Below are positions 3,563 to 15,566 of a stretch of 64,000 bases of DNA, piece by piece (position 1 is the first letter of the stretch; each line of letters begins with the position of its first letter). The notes beneath the pieces were generated by a model that saw nothing but the letters and a program-made list of their open reading frames with translations, made no database searches and was not told where the DNA came from. A program made the position numbers and the translations under genes. The DNA comes from Escherichia coli (GTDB taxonomy: Bacteria > Pseudomonadota > Gammaproteobacteria > Enterobacterales > Enterobacteriaceae), in assembly GCF_024502345.1 (NCBI RefSeq), contig NZ_JALDNN010000001.1. One strand, 5' to 3'.

Positions 3563-6500
3563 TTATCCTTTAAAGCAACGGCGGATCACCACAAAGAACA
3601 CCGGTACGAAGAAGATTGCCAGCAACGTTGCAGAGACCATTCCTCCCATTACCCCGATACCCACAGCGTTCTGCGCGCCACTGCCGGCACCGTTACTGAT
3701 AGCCAGCGGTAATACGCCGAGAATAAAGGCGAGAGAGGTCATCAGGATAGGACGCAGACGCATACGTACTGCCATTAGTGTCGCTTCAACAACACCTTTA
3801 CCCTCTTTCTCCATGAGATCTTTAGCGAACTCAACAATCAAAATAGCGTTTTTGGCCGACAAGCCAATTGTCGTTAGCAAGCCCACCATAAAGTAGACGT
3901 CATTTTTTTGATTAAAGAGTGTCGCCGCCAGCAGCACGCCGACAATCCCTAACGGCACGACCAACATAACCGAGACAGGAATTGACCAGCTTTCATAGAG
4001 TGCAGCAAGGCACAGGAAAACAACCACAAAGGAAATTGCTACCAGAGCGGGAGCCTGGTTTCCCGATAAGCGTTCCTGATACGACATACCCGTCCAGTCA
4101 TAACCAATGCCCGCAGGTAATTTTGACGCAAGGTTTTCCATCAACGCCATGGCATCGCCGGAACTGGTTCCTGGCGCGGCTTCCCCCTGAATCTCCATTG
4201 ACGGCAGACCGTTGTAGCGTTCCAGTCGCGGAGAGCCATACACCCAATGTGAAGTGGTAAAGGCAGAGAATGGCACCATTTCGCCGTTGGCGCTGCGGAC
4301 ATAAAGTTTATCGACATCTTCTGGCAGCATACGGAATTTGGCATCCGCCTGAACATACACCTTTTTCACGCGACCACGGTCGATGAAGTCGTTAACGTAA
4401 GTCCCACCCAGCGCCGTTGAAATGGTCTGATTGATGTCAGAAAGTGAAACACCTAATGCCTGCGCCTTTTCCTGGTCAACTTCCAGTTTAAACTGCGCGG
4501 TGTCTTCCAGGCCATTAGGACGCACGCTGACTAAGCTGGCAGGATGTTGCGCCGCCATACCAAGCAACTGGTTACGGGCCTGGGTTAGGGCATCGTGACC
4601 CAGCCCAGCCTGATCAATTAACTCAAAGTCGAAACCCGTTGCCGTGCCCAGTTCAACAATGGCTGGCATATTGAATGGAATGACAAAACCGTCGCGGATC
4701 TTGCCCAACTCCATTTTGGCACGATGGATTACCGCTTCCGCACTGTTTTCGTCACCACTACGCTCTTCCCACGGTTTCAGACTGACGAAGGCCATACCGG
4801 CGTTTTGTGCCTGGCCGCTGAAGCTAAAGCCGTTAACCGTAAAGACACTTTCAACGTTTGCTTTCTCGTTCTTCAGATAGTAATCCGTCACTTGATCCAA
4901 CACTTTTTGCGTCCGCTCTTGCGTCGCGCCAGCGGGTAACTGAATCATGGTCAGAAAGACACCCTGATCCTCTTCAGGTAAGAAGGAAGACGGAAGACGT
5001 AAAAACAACACCACCATTCCTGCAACAATCAGCGCATAGATCAGTAAATATCGTCCTGTGGAACCGAGGATTTTGCCGACGCTGTTGGTGTAGTGGTTAA
5101 CGCTATGATCGAAGGTGGTATTAAACCAGCCGAAGAAACCGCCCTTATTTTCGTGATGCTCAGCAGAGACGGGTTTAAGCAGCGTTGCACATAACGCAGG
5201 GGTAAGAATCAATGCCACCAGAACAGAAAGCGCCATTGCCGAAACGATGGTGATAGAGAACTGGCGATAAATTGCCCCAGTAGAACCGCCGAAGAATGCC
5301 ATCGGAATAAATACCGCTGACAGCACCATCGCGATACCCACCAGTGCGCCCTGAATTTGCGACATTGATTTTTCCGTCGCTTCTTTTGGCGGGAGCTTAT
5401 CCTCCATCATCACGCGCTCGACGTTCTCCACCACCACTATCGCATCATCGACGAGCAGCCCGATGGCAAGCACCATCCCGAACATCGTTAGTGTGTTGAT
5501 GGAGTAACCAAAAGCGGCGAGGATGGCAAACGTCCCTAACAACACCACGGGTACCGCAATGGTGGGGATCAGCGTTGCTCGCATATTCTGCAAGAACAGA
5601 TACATCACCAGGAACACCAGCATAATAGCTTCGAACAGTGTTTTTACCACTTCGTGAATAGAAAGCTGGACGAATGGCGTGGTGTCATAAGGGTAGAGAA
5701 CCTTCATTCCCTGCGGGAAGAATGGCTGTAATTCCGCCAGTTTTGCCTTAATGGCTTTCGCGGTATCGAGAGCATTCGCGCCGGTTGCCAGCTTAATCCC
5801 CAGGCCCGCCGCCGGTTTTCCGTTGATACGAGCGATAACGTTATAGTTTTCACCGCCAAGTTCAACCCGTGCGACATCTTTCAGGCGTACCACCGAGCCG
5901 TCACTGTTTACGCGCAGGGTCACTTTGCCGAATTCTTCCGGATTTTTTAACCGCGTTTGAGCAATAATCGAGGCATTCAACTGTTGCCCTGGTAACGCTG
6001 GCGTTCCGCCCAACTGTCCGGCAGCGATCTGATCGTTCTGTACCTTCAACTGGTTAATCACATCAACCGGTGTCAGTTTATATTTGTTTAGCAGATCGGC
6101 GTCCAGCCAGATACGCATCGCATACTGTGCGCCGAAAAGCTGTACGTCACCGACGCCATTCAGACGGCTAAGCGTATCTTTAACGTTAGAGGCCACATAG
6201 TCCGAGATATCGTCCTGTGTGGTGTCTGGGTTATCAGAGACAAAGCCCGCCACCATCAAATAGCTGCTACTGGACTTTTCAACACTGATCCCCTGCTGCT
6301 GAACCTCCTGCGGCAGCAACGGCGTGGCGAGCTGGAGTTTGTTCTGCACCTGCACTTGCGCGATATCAGGATCGGTCCCGGACTGGAAGGTAAGGGTAAT
6401 TGTCACGCTACCGGCGGAATCGCTGGTGGAGGACATATACATCAGGTTATCGATACCATTCATATTCTGTTCGATAACCTGCGTCACCGTATCCTGCACG

Positions 6501-8267: not shown

Positions 8268-9324
8268 GGCTTTGTTGAATAAATCGAACTTTTGCTGAGT
8301 TGAAGGATCAGATCACGTATCTTCCCGACAACGCAGACCGTTCCGTGGCAAAGCAAAAGTTCAAAATCACCAACTGGCCCACCTACAATAAAGCCCTCAT
8401 CAACCGTGGCTCCATAACTTTCTGGCTGGATGATGAAGCTATTCAGGCCTGGTATGAGTCAGCAACACCTTCTTCACGAGGCAGACCTCAGCGCTATTCT
8501 GACCTTGCCATCACGACTGTGCTGGTCATTAAACGCGTATTCAGGCTGACCCTGCGCGCTGCGCAGGGCTTTATTGATTCCATTTTTTCTCTGATGAACG
8601 TTCCGCTACGCTGCCCGGATTACAGCTGTGTCAGCAGGCGGGCAAAGTCGGTTAATGTCAGTTTCAAAACGCCCACCCGGGGTGAAATCGCACACCTGGT
8701 AATTGATTCCACCGGGCTGAAGGTCTTCGGTGAAGGCGAGTGGAAAGTCAAAAAGCATGGCCAGGAACGCCGCCGTATCTGGCGTAAGCTGCATCTCGCC
8801 GTTGACAGTAAAACACATGAAATCATCTGCGCTGACCTGTCGCTGAACAACGTTACGGACTCAGAGGCCTTCCCCGGGTTAATCCGGCAAACCCACCGGA
8901 AAATCAGGTCAGCCGCCGCCGATGGCGCTTACGATACCCGGCTATGTCACGATGAACTGCGGCGTAAGAAAATCAGCGCGCTTATCCCTCCCCGAAAAGG
9001 TGCGGGTTACTGGCCCGGTGAATATGCAGACCGTAACCGTGCAGTGGCTAATCAGCGAATGACCGGGAGTAATGCGCGGTGGAAATGGACAACAGATTAC
9101 AACCGTCGCTCGATAGCGGAAACGGCGATGTACCGGGTAAAACAGCTGTTCGGGGGTTCACTGACACTGCGTGACTACGATGGTCAGGTTGCAGAGGCTA
9201 TGGCCCTGGTACGAGCGCTGAACAAAATGACGAAAGCAGGTATGCCTGAAAGCGTGCGTATTGCCTGAAAACACAACCCGCTACGGGGGAGACTTACCCG
9301 AAATCTGATTTATTCAACAAAGCC
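8268..9324 (+). mobile_element. IS903-group (IS5 family) insertion sequence, 1057 bp
   Basis: 18-bp terminal inverted repeats GGCTTTGTTGAATAAATC (8268-8285) and reverse complement (9307-9324); single transposase ORF; 9-bp direct target duplication; length and repeat sizes match IS903/IS102-type elements. Confidence 0.85.
8300..9268 (+). CDS. IS903-group DDE transposase
   Basis: 322-aa ORF (TTG start in track) MKDQITYLPDNADRSVAKQKFKITNWPTYNKALINRGSITFWLDDEAIQAWY...; recognised as IS5-family/IS903-group transposase. Confidence 0.85.
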   Translation: MKDQITYLPDNADRSVAKQKFKITNWPTYNKALINRGSITFWLDDEAIQAWYESATPSSRGRPQRYSDLAITTVLVIKRVFRLTLRAAQGFIDSIFSLMNVPLRCPDYSCVSRRAKSVNVSFKTPTRGEIAHLVIDSTGLKVFGEGEWKVKKHGQERRRIWRKLHLAVDSKTHEIICADLSLNNVTDSEAFPGLIRQTHRKIRSAAADGAYDTRLCHDELRRKKISALIPPRKGAGYWPGEYADRNRAVANQRMTGSNARWKWTTDYNRRSIAETAMYRVKQLFGGSLTLRDYDGQVAEAMALVRALNKMTKAGMPESVRIA

Positions 9325-9333
9325 GCTCTGAAG
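9325..9333. repeat. Right 9-bp target-site duplication GCTCTGAAG
   Basis: Direct repeat of 8259-8267 flanking the IS. Confidence 0.85.
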
Positions 9334-9965
9334 ACCCGGCAAGAACTGATTGAAACTGCCATCGCCCAGTTTGCGCAACATGGCGTAAGCAAGACGACGC
9401 TCAACGACATTGCCGATGCCGCTAACGTTACGCGTGGCGCTATCTACTGGCACTTCGAAAACAAGACTCAACTGTTTAATGAGATGTGGTTGCAACAGCC
9501 TTCATTGCGGGAGTTAATCCAGGAACACTTGACGGCTGGATTAGAGCATGACCCGTTTCAACAATTGCGTGAAAAATTGATTGTCGGCTTGCAATATATT
9601 GCCAAAATTCCCCGCCAGCAGGCGTTGCTGAAAATCTTATATCACAAATGTGAATTTAATGATGAGATGCTGGCCGAGGGAGTGATACGCGAAAAGATGG
9701 GCTTTAATCCGCAGACTCTCCGCGAAGTATTGCAGGCGTGTCAGCAACAAGGTTGTGTAGCAAATAACCTCGATTTAGATGTTGTGATGATTATTATTGA
9801 TGGTGCCTTCAGCGGAATTGTTCAAAACTGGTTAATGAATATGGCGGGTTATGATCTTTATAAACAAACCCCCGCTCTGGTCGATAACGTATTAAGAATG
9901 TTCATGCCAGATGAAAACATAACGAAATTAATTCATCAAACGAATGAATTAAGTGTCATGTAAAT

Positions 9966-10145
9966 TCACATTCTGTCCTGAAAATTCAGTTCGTCACAGT
10001 TAACCAGTTTTAGTGGATTAACTGAGTTCATATTACGGCATTTGTCTGTTTCTGTTGTCAGCAGTTCAATCCACTGCATCAGTAAAGTATCAAACAGAAA
10101 AACGAAGACAGCGAAAACGACGAGCCACCAATACTTGCGAATCAT
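9966..10145 (-). CDS. yhdU: Small membrane protein YhdU
   Basis: ORF containing MIRKYWWLVVFAVFVFLFDTLLMQWIELL...; conserved position between acrS and yhdJ. Confidence 0.75.
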   Translation of the reverse strand: MIRKYWWLVVFAVFVFLFDTLLMQWIELLTTETDKCRNMNSVNPLKLVNCDELNFQDRM

Positions 10146-10228
10146 TACCTGAGCCTGTGCATGTTTAACCAAGTCTGGCAGGAAATATACACGAAATGAA
10201 TAATCTGAAAACCAGGCTTACACTTCCT

Positions 10229-11113
10229 TTACTTTGCAATGAGATCGGGGTCAACTTCGCTTAACCGGCTTCGTTTTGACAGGTTGCCGGTCTTTCTTTT
10301 TTTCACTTTCGCCAGTTCTTCCGCAGAGTAATGCGACGCGACATCCAGCCGTCGAAGCCCCATTTTGATGTACTCGCTGTTGATCTCAATACCAATGAAT
10401 TTTCGCCCGCTGGAGACGGCTACGGCACCGGTAGTAAAGCTACCGGCAAACGGGTCGAGAACGATATCGCCTGGGTTGGAAGAGGCGAGAATAATGCGTT
10501 TCAGTAAGGCTTCCGGTTTTTGCGTCGGGTGGTTTTCATATTCATCCATCAAATAACGCACGCGCGGAAAATCCCAGACGTTACCCGGTACTTTTTGATG
10601 ATTGTAAGGCTGTGGAGGATTTTTGCGATAATCGATCAACGCGCGCTGCGATCCGGTTTTGGCTTCTACCAGAATAGCATCACCGTTGAACGTGTAGTTC
10701 TTTGCGTCTTTCACCATCATCAGGATGGGTTCATACATGGAACCGTAGTGTTTTTTCGCCTGCACTCCAGAACTGTCATATGACCAGACGATGCGACTTT
10801 TGATGGTAAAAAGCTTGCGGCACTGGAGATCGATAAAGGGCATGTTTTCCGTACTGTTCATGATGTACATGCTGCCCTGCTTTTTCAGAACGCGGTGGCA
10901 CTCTGCAATCACTTCAAACAGCCAGTCGATAAACAGATCTTCTTTCCAGGCTTCGATCAGACCATCAAAATTTTTACCGATGTTATACGGTGGGTCGGCA
11001 AAGATCAGATCGACGCTTTCAGTAGGTAGCTTTTTAAGTTCGGCAAGGGCATCACCGTGAATAATGGTCTTAGCTTCATTACCAAACCGGGTCGGTTCAC
11101 ATCCTGTTCTCAT
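10229..11113 (-). CDS. yhdJ: Orphan N6-adenine DNA methyltransferase YhdJ
   Basis: 296-aa ORF with methyltransferase motifs FADPPY and DPFAGSFTTG; likely start at MRTGCEP. Confidence 0.9.
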   Translation of the reverse strand: MRTGCEPTRFGNEAKTIIHGDALAELKKLPTESVDLIFADPPYNIGKNFDGLIEAWKEDLFIDWLFEVIAECHRVLKKQGSMYIMNSTENMPFIDLQCRKLFTIKSRIVWSYDSSGVQAKKHYGSMYEPILMMVKDAKNYTFNGDAILVEAKTGSQRALIDYRKNPPQPYNHQKVPGNVWDFPRVRYLMDEYENHPTQKPEALLKRIILASSNPGDIVLDPFAGSFTTGAVAVSSGRKFIGIEINSEYIKMGLRRLDVASHYSAEELAKVKKRKTGNLSKRSRLSEVDPDLIAK

Positions 11114-11140
11114 GGTCACTCCCTTTGTGACACCTATAAA

Positions 11141-11180
11141 AAAGGCGCTTCCCCATGCCGAGTAGCGCCTTTTTAATCAA
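11141..11180 (-). terminator. Bidirectional rho-independent terminator (ancestral fis terminator)
   Basis: aaaaaaggcgcttccccatgccgagtagcgccttttt: GC stem flanked by A6 and T5 runs, immediately downstream of the left copy of the fis 3'-end repeat. Confidence 0.6.
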
Positions 11181-11198
11181 GCATTTAGCTAACCTGAA

Positions 11199-11215
11199 TT
11201 AGTTCATGCCGTATT
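11199..11215. repeat. Left copy of 17-bp direct repeat TTAGTTCATGCCGTATT (duplicate of fis 3' terminus; att-like)
   Basis: Exact 17/17 identity with 13069-13085, which is the true 3' end of fis including its stop codon. Confidence 0.9.
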
Positions 11216-11382
11216 GTAAAATACAGAGTCATTATACGTAATTTATTATCACTCTAGATAATTTGTATTCATCATAAATAATTGATGCGGAAAGAGATAT
11301 TTATTTTTTATTGGCTCGCATTGTATCATCAGTTATCAGTTACTCCCTGCATACAGTTGTCAAAAAGGTTGTCATTAACTCT

Positions 11383-11481
11383 ATGGCCGAAAATAAACTC
11401 TCAGATGTTCAATTGCGTGCGTTAACCCGCAAAGTCATCGAAAAACCTTTTGATGTTGCTGACGGTGGCCAAGTTGGGTGA
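11383..11481 (+). pseudogene. Putative integrase N-terminal (arm-binding domain) remnant, 32 codons then stop
   Basis: MAENKLSDVQLRALTRKVIEKPFDVADGGQVG* resembles the KLTD..R..KP....DGGG N-terminal motif of tyrosine integrases; followed by a hairpin plus T7 run at about 11570-11600. Confidence 0.35.
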
Positions 11482-11610
11482 AAACCTGCTATGCAGCTAC
11501 CGCATAAGGGTAGTGGATTCCGCTGAAATCTTGCCGTTCATCCGATCATAACATCACAACAGTTGTTGCCCATTACCCTGGCGAATGCCGGGGCTTTTTT
11601 TATTTTCAAA

Positions 11611-11923
11611 GTGACGCCTAGGTGTCATTAATTTATAAGGTGTCATGGTAGGTGTCATTGTTCTCAAGCCATAACCCGCAAGGGTTGCGACATTACTAAT
11701 GACACCTATGACACCTATGACAGCATTTTTAAAGAAAATAACGACCACTGTAATAATGTAACAGTGGTCGTTATACTTTATAGAAATGGGTGTCATGGTG
11801 TCACAGGTGTCATTCATTACAGTATCTTGTTTGTATTTTTCTTTAATAATCAGCGTGTTTCCCGCTATGACACCTAATGACACCTTTCCAACATAACGCC
11901 GTCATGGTGACATTAGGTGTCAT
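11611..11923. repeat. Iteron-like array: at least 11 copies of the 9-mer AGGTGTCAT / ATGACACCT in both orientations
   Basis: Forward copies at 11620, 11638, 11650, 11789, 11797 (variant), 11805, 11915; reverse copies at 11699, 11708, 11867, 11877; arranged as two similar modules (three forward then two reverse) about 169 bp apart. Confidence 0.8.
11739..11773. repeat. Perfect hairpin/palindrome with 13-bp arms (TAACGACCACTGT / ACAGTGGTCGTTA) and 9-nt AT-rich loop, central to the 9-mer array
   Basis: Read directly from sequence. Confidence 0.8.
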
Positions 11924-12274
11924 CGCCATCTGCTGCCAAAAAAGTCAAGGTACTTCCGAGGGGGGTACAGCCTGCGGGGGCATTGGTCCCGCGTAATTCG
12001 CGTTGTGCGTGCCCCTACAAAACTCACTTTATGATTACGTCAAGTAAATCAATCATTTATGTGAATCCTATCAAAGCACTGGCACCATACGTGCGCGATT
12101 GCAAAATAAAGCGAACACGTTTTACACACGCTGAATTGTAAAGATGTGTAAATATCGATTACGCCGGATTATGCCGGGTTATTTGCAAGTATTCAGGGTT
12201 ATAAGTTACTGATTTTACATTAAAAAGCTCACATTGTGGCTATTGTGTTCGGTCTGGTTACTGTATATCTTTAA

Positions 12275-12991
12275 GTCATTCCAGGCGATTTAGCTGGCCT
12301 GGCGCTGGCAGGTTATCAGATTTACCGCCATTGGGCTGGTGTGAAGGCTTTCTTTGGCGGAGTGGGTGAAGGCATCAAATCCGGGCTGGAACCGCTTAGC
12401 GACGCTCTGAGCCGCCTTTATGAACGCATGGGGCCGCTGAAACCTGTCATTGATGGTGTGGGTGCTGCGGTTAAGACGGTTTTCAACTGGTTCACGTCAT
12501 TGACCGAGCCGGTCAAGTACAGTGGCGAGGAACTGGATAAGGCCGGTAAAATGGGGATGACGTTCGGTAAGACCCTGGCGGCTGGCATCGAGCTTGTGAC
12601 CGCACCGATCACGTTCCTGATTGATAAGATTCTGTGGGTGTCTGACAACATCGGCAACCTGACCAACAAGGCACTGGAGTTTAAAAACGCCGTGTCTGAT
12701 GTTGCTGGTGGTGCGTGGCAGAAAACCAAAGATTTCTTTACCGCACCATTCCGCGACGATGTACAGCAGCCAGCAGCAACCACTGCCTCTGGTGCTGCCC
12801 TGCCGTCACCTGCACTGGCCAACCGCTCTGGTGGCACTACGGTGCATAGCAACGACCAGTACCACATCAGCGTGAAGGCAGAACCTGGTATGAATGAAGA
12901 TGCATTAGCCCGGAAGGTGATACAGCAACTACGACAGCAACAAGCAGTAAGGCAGCGAAGCATGATGATAGATGGCGCGCAAACACCATAA
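12275..12991 (+). pseudogene. 5'-truncated phage tail tape-measure-like protein, C-terminal fragment
   Basis: Open frame from 12275 (stop at 12272 upstream) encodes ...LAGLALAGYQIYRHWAGVKAFFGGVGEGIKSGLEPLSDALSRLYERMGPLKPVIDGVGAAVKTVFNWF...VHSNDQYHISVKAEPGMNEDALARKVIQQLRQQQ; Gly/Ala-rich segments and C-terminal tail typical of tape-measure proteins; no plausible start or RBS for a full gene. Confidence 0.4.
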
Positions 12992-13068
12992 GGGTTGTCA
13001 GTACGGTTGCAACAAAAAGTAAAGGGACTGAAATAGCCCCTTTAATTTCATGCCGTTACAGCTTGACT

Positions 13069-13085
13069 TTAGTTCATGCCGTATT
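13069..13085. repeat. Right copy of 17-bp direct repeat TTAGTTCATGCCGTATT (native fis 3' end)
   Basis: Encodes the last codons ...YGMN* of fis on the minus strand. Confidence 0.9.
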
Positions 13086-13365
13086 TTTTCAATTTTTTAC
13101 GCAGCGTACCACGGTTGATGCCCATCATCAGCGCAGCACGGGTCTGGTTACCACGGGTGTATTGCATCACCATGTCCAACAGGGGCTGTTCTACTTCAGC
13201 CAGTACCAGCTCATAGAGGTCATTCACATCCTGACCATTCAGTTGAGCAAAATAGTTCTTCAGTGCCTGTTTAACCGAGTCACGCAGGGGTTTTTGGGTT
13301 ACCTGATCCTGAGAGTTAACGGTAGAAACGGTCAGTACGTCAGAATTTACGCGTTGTTCGAACAT
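13069..13365 (-). CDS. fis: Nucleoid-associated protein Fis
   Basis: 98-aa [101 protein letters not shown], recognised as Fis. Confidence 0.97.
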
Positions 13366-13390
13366 AGTTCTGTCAGCTCTTTATTTCTGT

Positions 13391-14356
13391 TTACGCAAAA
13401 TTTTCGAAGTATGCCTCCAACGCCTCCAGCTGTTCGCTGGCATCCTCAATGGCGTTGAATGTGCGCCGAAACTGGTCATTGGGAGCGTGTTCCTGGAGAT
13501 ACCAGGAAACGTGTTTACGTGCAATTCGGTACCCTTTTGCCGGACCATAAAAGTCATGCAGTTCCCGAACGTGCGCGCAAAGCAAGCGCTTAACCTCTGC
13601 CAAAGGCAGCGGGGGCAGCAACTCCCCAGTGTCCAGATAATGCTGGATTTCCCGAAAGATCCAGGGTCTTCCCTGAGCTGCGCGGCCTATCATCAGGGCA
13701 TCCGCCCCTGTATAGTCGAGCACAGCTCTGGCTTTAAGCGGGTCAGTAATGTCGCCATTCGCGATAACCGGAATGGAAACTTTCTGCTTAACTGCCTGAA
13801 TACTGTCGTACTCAGCTTCTCCATTGAACAAACAGGCGCGTGTACGGCCATGAATGGTCAGAGCCTGAATGCCACAGTCTTCAGCCAGTTGGGCAATCTC
13901 TTCGCAGTTACGGTGTTCCGGCGCCCAGCCAGTGCGAATCTTCAGGGTAACAGGAACGTCCACTGCATTGACGACCTCGGTAAGGATCGATTTAACGACT
14001 TCCGGGTACTGCAAGAGGGCTGAACCTGCGAGCTTGCGATTCACTTTTTTAGCCGGGCAACCCATATTGATATCAATAATCTGGGCACCGCTTTCCACGT
14101 TAATACGTGCTGCATCTGCCATTTCTTTCGGATCGCTACCGGCAATTTGCACGGTGCGAATACCGGGTTCATCAATGTGCACCATCCGTAAACGAGATTT
14201 ATCGCTTTCCCAAACTTGTGGGTTAGAAGACATCATCTCGGATACTGTCAATCCGGCTCCCATCTCGTAGCACAACGTCCGAAAAGGTCTGTCTGTAATG
14301 CCAGCCATGGGCGCTGCGATCAGGCGATTTCTGAGCTGATATTGTCCGATGCGCAT
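13391..14356 (-). CDS. dusB: tRNA-dihydrouridine synthase B
   Basis: 321-aa ORF immediately upstream of fis (dusB-fis operon); TIM-barrel flavoprotein sequence. Confidence 0.93.
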
Positions 14357-14684
14357 GTGTTAAGAAATGACCATACTGTGACTGCAAGGCGGCGTATATT
14401 ACGCATTTTTCGCACGAGATGAAAGGCCAAACTTTGACCAATCCTCTGAGATGGATCAAAGAATTGCATTTAAAATGAGCGTAGCGCGATAATTACTCAT
14501 AAAAATCATCATATTAGAAAATAGTGACTAAAATTCACACTCAAAGAAATTTGAGTAAGTTCTCAATTTTTCTTTATGAATGAAAATTTTGGCACGCAAA
14601 TTTGCGTAAATAATCAGCAAGTTTGCGTGCCTTTTGTGACGTCGCTCGCATTTTGTTGGCTGATGCGAACTTACCTGAAGATGA

Positions 14685-15566
14685 TTAATTCTTACGACCA
14701 GTAATGCGGCACCACTCTTCTTTTTCCACGACCGGGTCCAGAGCGAAGCTGTCGGCATAGGCTTCGCAAACGCTCTCCGCCTGGCTTGCCAGAATACCAG
14801 AAAGGCCCAGTAAGCCGCCTGAAACTGGCAGGACGCTAATTAACGGTGCCAGTTCACGTAACGGGCCTGCGAGGATGTTAGCGACCACCACGTCGGCTTT
14901 CATCGCTTCTGGCTGATCTTTCGGTAAGTAGAGTTCCAGACGCTCAGAAACACCATTACGTTCGGCGTTGTCGCGGCTGGCCTGAATCGCCTGCGGATCG
15001 ATATCAATACCAATGGCTTTTGCTGCACCAAGCTTCAGCGCTGCGATAGCCAGAATGCCGGAACCGCAGCCAAAGTCGATCACCGTTTTACCGGTTAAAT
15101 CGAGGCTGTCGAGCCATTGCAGGCACAAAGATGTGGTTGGATGGGTACCCGTACCAAACGCCAGCCCTGGGTCTAACATCACGTTGACGGCGTTTTCGTC
15201 CGGCACATCACGCCAGCTTGGGCAGATCCACAGTCGTTCACCAAAGCGCATCGGGTGGAAATTATCCATCCATTCGCGCTCCCAGTCTTTATCTTCCAGT
15301 TGTTCGATTTTATGCGCGAAGCCCGCACCGAGCAGCGGATGGTTTTCCAGAATCGCCACCACGTCGTTCATGTCGGTTTCAGCGTCGAACAGACCAATCA
15401 CATCGGTGTCGCCCCACAGGCGCGTTTCGCCCGGCAGCGGCTCAAATACTGGCGTATCGTGGGTATCCTGAAAAGTGATAGAAACGGCACCCGCTTCCAT
15501 CAGCGCATCGCTAAGATCTTCCGCGTTCGCGCCGGTGGTGTTCAGTTTCAGTTGGATCCAAGGCAT
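14685..15566 (-). CDS. prmA: Ribosomal protein L11 methyltransferase
   Basis: 293-aa ORF with SAM-binding motif [13 protein letters not shown]. Confidence 0.93.

Follow-up and report, generated by a model that had tools for sequence, protein, structure and literature searches.

The window, a stretch of 64,000 nucleotides of Escherichia coli DNA, carries acrF, acrE, an acrS gene cut by an insertion sequence, yhdU and yhdJ (10229–11119, minus strand), followed by fis (13069–13365, minus strand), dusB and prmA. This is the yhdJ–fis neighbourhood of E. coli. In K-12, fis and yhdJ lie 85 bp apart, and the empty K-12 site was colinear with the window up to position 11215 and resumed at 13069. The window contains an insertion of 1,870 bp at this site, flanked by an exact 17-bp direct repeat, TTAGTTCATGCCGTATT (11199–11215 and 13069–13085). 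The reverse complement of the repeat, AATACGGCATGAACTAA, contains the published att block, TACGGCATGAACTAA, of fis PICIs, phage-inducible chromosomal islands with the fis 3' end as their integration site (Tommasini, Mageeney & Williams 2023, NAR Genom Bioinform, PMC10111431).

Several features of the surroundings were recorded as well. At window positions 8300–9963, acrS/envR is interrupted by the gene for an IS5-family transposase (322 aa; NCBIfam transpos_IS5_2, E 6e-107), and the acrS ORF that is left has 159 aa (9484–9963) instead of 220 aa. A similar IS5/acrS arrangement was detected in 2 of the 5,426 complete E. coli genomes, at 94–96% identity. On the other side of yhdJ, the native terminator hairpin of fis (11136–11177) has been pushed 1.9 kb off, to the yhdJ side of the insertion. 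Weak Rfam matches to STnc40 and STnc70 in the fis terminator region were rejected, as they scored far below the gathering scores. A terminator-like hairpin carried by the element lies directly downstream of the fis stop codon, and fis transcripts at occupied sites would presumably end there. The att core is present a third time in degenerate form, TTAATTTCATGCCGT (13042–13056), overlapping the stem of this hairpin; in a repeat-family alignment it shows 87% identity to the fis-side core, from which it lies 26 bp inward.

E. coli JML285 (L001) carries an element of 9,519 bp between yhdJ and fis. Read inward from the yhdJ side, this intact element encodes a 411-aa integrase, a 59-aa helix-turn-helix protein, orf93, a 562-aa VapE-domain protein and orf74, then a terminator and an iteron block, and finally six hypothetical proteins and a 762-aa tape-measure protein. 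The 59-aa protein matched Phage_AlpA (PF05930; E 3.5e-13), while the 562-aa protein contains a VapE-like domain (E 4.5e-48) and was called a primase/helicase by PHROGs. Accessions for the intact fis-PICI integrase and AlpA are WP_001460096.1 and WP_001439227.1. The 762-aa protein was identified as a tape-measure protein by both NCBIfam (TIGR01760) and PHROGs (phrog_28). No Pfam, NCBIfam or PHROGs match was obtained for orf93, and NCBIfam and PHROGs gave none for orf74, the 294-aa protein or five small proteins of the late zone. The inward order of int followed by AlpA was present in both intact relatives, L001 and L002, and 47 of the 5,426 complete E. coli genomes carry the 411-aa integrase at the yhdJ|fis position.

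The window was compared with L001 by BLAST, and the junctions were defined together with a base-by-base three-way comparison. Three colinear blocks were obtained: window 10900–11469 corresponds to L001 15698–16267 (98.4% over 570 bp), window 11466–12292 to L001 20001–20827, and window 12291–13400 to L001 24738–25847. The features between the two att cores are as follows.

11199–11215, unstranded: att core, yhdJ-side copy of TTAGTTCATGCCGTATT, a duplicate of the fis 3' end (exact repeat; K-12 empty site)
11216–11382, plus strand: att arm next to the integrase, with the region upstream of that gene (colinear with the L001 element)
11383–11469, plus strand: integrase pseudogene fragment, codons 1–29 of 411 (identity to L001 residues 1–29)
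11466–11469, unstranded: deletion junction 1, TGGC microhomology, 3,737 bp missing
11466–11551, plus strand: 3' end of orf74, last 28 codons (11466–12292 equals L001 20001–20827 at 99.8%)
11470–11481, plus strand: out-of-frame read-through, QVG and the stop of the 32-codon ORF (frame comparison of the ORF at 11383 with the orf74 frame, ORF 11450–11551)
11576–11601, plus strand: hairpin and T7 resembling a Rho-independent terminator (fold and scan; the spacing of 25 bp from the orf74 stop at 11551 is the same in intact elements)
11617–11926, unstranded: iteron block, ten exact copies of GGTGTCAT in both orientations (octamer count and repeat search)
12291–12292, unstranded: deletion junction 2, TA microhomology, 3,912 bp missing
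12293–12991, plus strand: C-terminal remnant of the 762-aa tape-measure gene (comparison with L001)
13020–13044, minus strand: element-borne terminator-like hairpin directly downstream of the fis stop (scan; putative function)
13069–13085, unstranded: att core, fis-side copy, overlapping the last fis codons and the stop (exact repeat; K-12 empty site)

At junction 1, integrase codons 30–411, alpA, orf93, vapE and the first 46 codons of orf74 have been lost, and integrase codon 29 is joined out of frame to orf74 codon 47. Junction 2 removed the six small genes and the first 546 codons of the tape-measure gene. The last third of that gene remains, and it holds an internal GTG-initiated ORF of 216 codons (12341–12991). 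Altogether, 7.6 of 9.5 kb are gone from the window copy, leaving both att cores, the integrase upstream region, 29 integrase codons, the orf74 tail with its terminator, the iterons and the end of the tape-measure gene. Since the integrase catalytic domain, AlpA and the primase are missing, the remnant is unable to excise, integrate or replicate by itself.

The 32-codon frame MAENKLSDVQLRALTRKVIEKPFDVADGGQVG starts with an ATG at 11383 and ends with a stop at 11479–11481 on the plus strand (ORF 11383–11481). Its length is ordinary, as 71 ORFs of at least 25 aa overlap positions 9000–15000. The original prediction had noted a resemblance to the N-terminal arm-binding motif of tyrosine integrases and had proposed that the gene was truncated by a deletion. 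Both ideas were supported. Residues 1–29 of the ORF are identical to the N-terminus of the 411-aa tyrosine integrase of E. coli JML285 (L001 16181–17416), which starts with MAENKLSDVQLRALTRKVIEKPFDVADGGSLSVRV. When this integrase of a fis-inserted island was used as a tblastn query against the whole 64-kb window, it matched 11383–11475 with 29/31 identity and E = 2.9e-13, a match to a real integrase that lies far beyond chance. No other significant integrase fragment was found by this search in the 64-kb window, and residues 32–411 remained unmatched.

In the full-length orthologue, Pfam recognised Arm-DNA-bind_3 (PF13356) at residues 6–104 (E 7.3e-14) and Phage_integrase (PF00589) at residues 223–385 (E 1.1e-16). 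When the 32-aa peptide alone was searched against Pfam, no match was returned at E ≤ 1, the peptide being too short, so that the ORF is identified through its intact orthologue at this locus. The window keeps roughly the first quarter of the arm-binding domain (~24 of ~99 residues). The catalytic domain PF00589 with its catalytic Tyr is absent from the window and falls within the 3,737-bp deletion. Judged by its sequence, the feature is an integrase pseudogene fragment without functional family membership, and the 32-aa peptide would have no function.

The frame of the ORF is closed by the junction itself. Beyond junction 1 the integrase frame continues into the tail of orf74 in the wrong frame and reaches a stop after three codons. 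A nonsense or frameshift mutation as the source of the stop was rejected, since the three-way alignment revealed a deletion junction at this place.

The ATG of the ORF adjoins the att site of its own element. Its distance from the att-like repeat, predicted to be 167 bp, was found to be exact: the core ends at 11215 and the start codon lies at 11383. A weak σ70-like match is present in this upstream region (11255–11282); it is a consensus match only and could act as a promoter. The upstream region also contains a tandem of two ATCAGTT heptamers (11328–11341), about 40 bp upstream of the integrase ATG. In L006, a neighbouring PICI has two copies of GTGTAGTCAGTG (~3875–3900) at the matching relative position. 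Both tandems are candidate arm-type integrase binding sites, judged from their sequence and position.

Downstream of the junction, the window retains the tail of orf74, which encodes a 74-aa hypothetical protein (WP_000122089.1; L001 19862–20086) and follows the VapE primase gene in the intact element. A hairpin of seven pairs, six of them G-C, with a 4-nt loop is located at 11576–11593, followed by a C and then by seven T residues at 11595–11601. The predicted features of a Rho-independent terminator, i.e. a G+C-rich stem-loop and a U-run placed after a stop codon, are present. The hairpin has a folding energy of −16 kcal/mol with a z-score of −2.06, and a terminator scan found two terminator-like sites in 2 kb, compared to 1.9 expected by chance. 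The hairpin is real, yet statistically unremarkable when taken alone. With all copies sharing more than 99% identity, the structure gains no support from covariation. An Rfam search of 11100–13100 at E ≤ 1 gave no match within 11383–11600.

The original prediction of an integrase remnant followed by a terminator was right about the presence of the hairpin and its T7 run, with the correction that these belong to another gene. A terminator of the integrase itself was rejected, as in intact elements it follows orf74. The hairpin with its T7 run is the native end of the gene string int-alpA-orf93-vapE-orf74, where it may terminate transcription. It now lies only about 95 bp from the integrase remnant as a consequence of the 3,737-bp deletion.

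Next to the terminator, ten GGTGTCAT octamers occur at 11621–11923, compared to 1.7 expected in the whole 64-kb window. They surround an AT-rich inverted repeat of 28 nt (11724–11788). Rfam models of plant miRNAs that aligned to the iteron palindrome (11691–11821) were rejected as chance matches to a generic hairpin, far below their gathering scores. One 9-bp iteron unit, ATGACACCT, is lacking in L004. From its place after the primase gene, the iteron block is probably the replication origin of the satellite. In the replication zone of the window, the VapE primase-helicase gene is deleted and the iteron block is kept; the intact relatives have VapE. A minus-strand ORF of 109 codons with repeated MTP motifs runs through the iterons (window 11554–11883; L002 15392–15721). 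Some RefSeq genomes list it as a hypothetical protein, probably a false gene prediction to which the repeats have given rise.

Positions 11100–13100 of the window were not found in one piece in any of the 5,426 complete E. coli genomes by megablast; some of these genomes carry the region in three separate places. Neither junction occurred in this set. For junction 1, 47 of the genomes contained the two halves of the query apart from each other, corresponding to an intact integrase. An exact 38-mer across junction 1 was not matched by any JGI metagenome contig, IMG/VR viral contig or GTDB representative genome. The truncated tape-measure product of 216 aa is recorded in 41 blocks of a public assembly collection, and eight loci from these blocks (L003–L010) were compared for junctions. 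Both junctions were present and exact in L003 (NCBI, GCA_050022275.1) and in L005, L007 and L008 (all three ENA), and L003 was 100% identical to the window over 3,137 bp. Only junction 2 was found in L004, L006, L009 and L010 (all Logan), which have kept alpA, orf93, vapE and orf74.

Deletion 2 may have preceded deletion 1, as parsimony suggests, because junction 1 was never seen without junction 2 in a public-copy search that was keyed on the junction-2-dependent product and is blind to forms with junction 1 only. Independent of that search, the one observation bearing on the order is that junction 1 was missing from the complete E. coli genomes, JGI metagenomes, IMG/VR and the GTDB representatives. 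In L005 and L008 the remnant of 1,853 bp is 100% identical to that of the window, against a divergence of about 1% from the window in the flanks (yhdJ, dusB and prmA). In this comparison (window positions 10863–13480), full identity extends beyond the att cores by 336 bp and 395 bp. An identical remnant in differing flanks likely reflects homologous recombination of the segment or of the flanks.

In L006, a second and different PICI lies in tandem at the same 17-bp fis core (3729–6335), right after the form that carries junction 2 only. It encodes a 407-aa integrase, 54% identical to that of this family, a DUF6387 protein and AlpA.

Taken together, we are highly confident that the ORF is a dead integrase fragment of a fis PICI that lost its mobility and replication genes through two deletions at microhomologies. 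In this sequence of events, an intact 9.5-kb fis PICI would have inserted site-specifically at the 3' end of fis. A deletion of 3,912 bp at a TA dinucleotide would then have taken out the middle of the late region, and a deletion of 3,737 bp between two TGGC tetranucleotides would have fused the integrase stub out of frame to the orf74 tail. Both deletions may have arisen by RecA-independent illegitimate recombination or by replication slippage at the microhomologies. If the two junctions were instead assembly artefacts, the genome would hold the full element. Short-read assemblies can mis-join at repeats, but nothing specific to the window points to this, and the junctions lie in unique sequence at microhomologies of 4 bp and 2 bp, away from repeats. 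Moreover, identical junctions are seen again in NCBI, ENA and Logan assemblies of independent origin, along with a coherent intermediate form, and this leaves the artefact with a negligible probability.

A different possibility is that the remnant is a non-autonomous mini-PICI, which is excised, replicated and re-integrated at fis with the help of the integrase, AlpA and primase of an intact sibling and of a helper phage. Both 17-bp cores, the flanking arms and the iterons survive, as such an element would need, and siblings do co-reside, as in the tandem of L006; tandems have been reported before as well (PMC10111431). The 100% identity of the deleted form in L005 and L008 across a flank difference of about 1% could result from spread between backgrounds, or from later recombination of the flanks. 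However, an identical tract that continues 336 and 395 bp past the cores suits homologous recombination better than site-specific insertion, and no packaging signal is known to be kept. Neither IMG/VR viral contigs nor JGI metagenomes contain junction 1, the 64-kb window has no sibling integrase, and a unit of 1.9 kb is far under any capsid-filling size. We therefore regard mobilisation in trans as improbable, though it is the foremost of the alternatives. Still less probable is that the fragment is expressed and has its own function, either as a 32-aa micropeptide, e.g. an arm-site decoy against incoming fis-PICI integrases, or as a terminator-bounded sRNA that extends between the integrase promoter and 11601. 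With the upstream region, a start codon and a terminator in place, a transcript of ~250–350 nt is plausible. But only ~24 of the ~99 arm-binding residues are left, the last three codons are an accident of the out-of-frame junction, and neither Rfam (11383–11600, E ≤ 1) nor Pfam gave a match. This configuration is known from a rare lineage only; none of the complete E. coli genomes has it, and signs of selection are accordingly lacking.

For a decayed fis PICI, which is the reading we favour, positions 11199–13085 should be annotated as a whole, with an integrase pseudogene, an orf74 fragment, a putative iteron origin and a tape-measure fragment. None of the short ORFs in this interval, three in number and including the one on the minus strand through the iterons, should be called a hypothetical protein. 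The progenitor, an intermediate with one deletion and an end product with two deletions together give a base-resolved picture of how a satellite may become locked in place and erode through deletions at short microhomologies while its att sites survive. Remnants of this kind will be overlooked by integrase-anchored island finders such as TIGER, and since it has no integrase gene, the remnant would be missed by the integrase-anchored TIGER survey of fis islands (PMC10111431). A mini-satellite mobilised in trans, if true, would explain the identical deleted form in backgrounds that differ by about 1%.

The element belongs to the published fis PICI family; what the window contains is a decayed remnant of it. 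A first survey described 2,642 fis PICIs and a second one 3,565 fis islands, all of them in Enterobacterales (PMC10111431). These islands have the att identity-block consensus TACGGCATGAACTAA at the fis terminus, and yhdJ is the usual gene across the island (PMC10111431). They comprise four zones: an integration zone with inward int and AlpA, a Bro zone, a replication zone, and a late zone in which genes of helper prophages are captured. Excision has been demonstrated experimentally only for one Klebsiella member, Kpn47.16.fis (cited in PMC10111431). The window shares with them the integration site, the att block inside the 17-bp repeat and yhdJ opposite fis. The intact relatives match the zone order, with int and AlpA, a primase gene and putative origin, and a late zone with the tape-measure gene, although no Bro-network protein was recognised in the intact relative. 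In contrast, the window copy does not display int followed by AlpA, as only 29 integrase codons are left and alpA is deleted. A 9.5-kb satellite with its own tape-measure gene fits the late gene capture of fis PICIs.

Other Gram-negative PICIs, such as EcCICFT073, have reportedly been described. Elements of the EcCICFT073 type have a similar layout, with co-oriented int, alpA and primase/replicase genes, an iteron origin, a size of ~10 kb and dependence on a helper phage. They differ in their integration site and in carrying packaging-redirection genes, none of which were identified here, whereas the window copy is a remnant without function. P4-type integrases and CP4-57-like islands share the combination of Arm-DNA-bind_3 (DUF4102) and Phage_integrase and an adjacent AlpA gene with the orthologue, and they likewise insert into a conserved gene whose 3' end is duplicated. 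Their target is a tRNA or tmRNA gene, whereas here it is the protein-coding fis, and only 29 integrase codons are left in the window. In the cryptic prophages of E. coli K-12, internal deletions leave att-proximal integrase stubs that lock the decaying element in place. The window resembles these stubs, but here both att cores survive, progenitor and intermediate are available, and the path of decay is resolved to the base.
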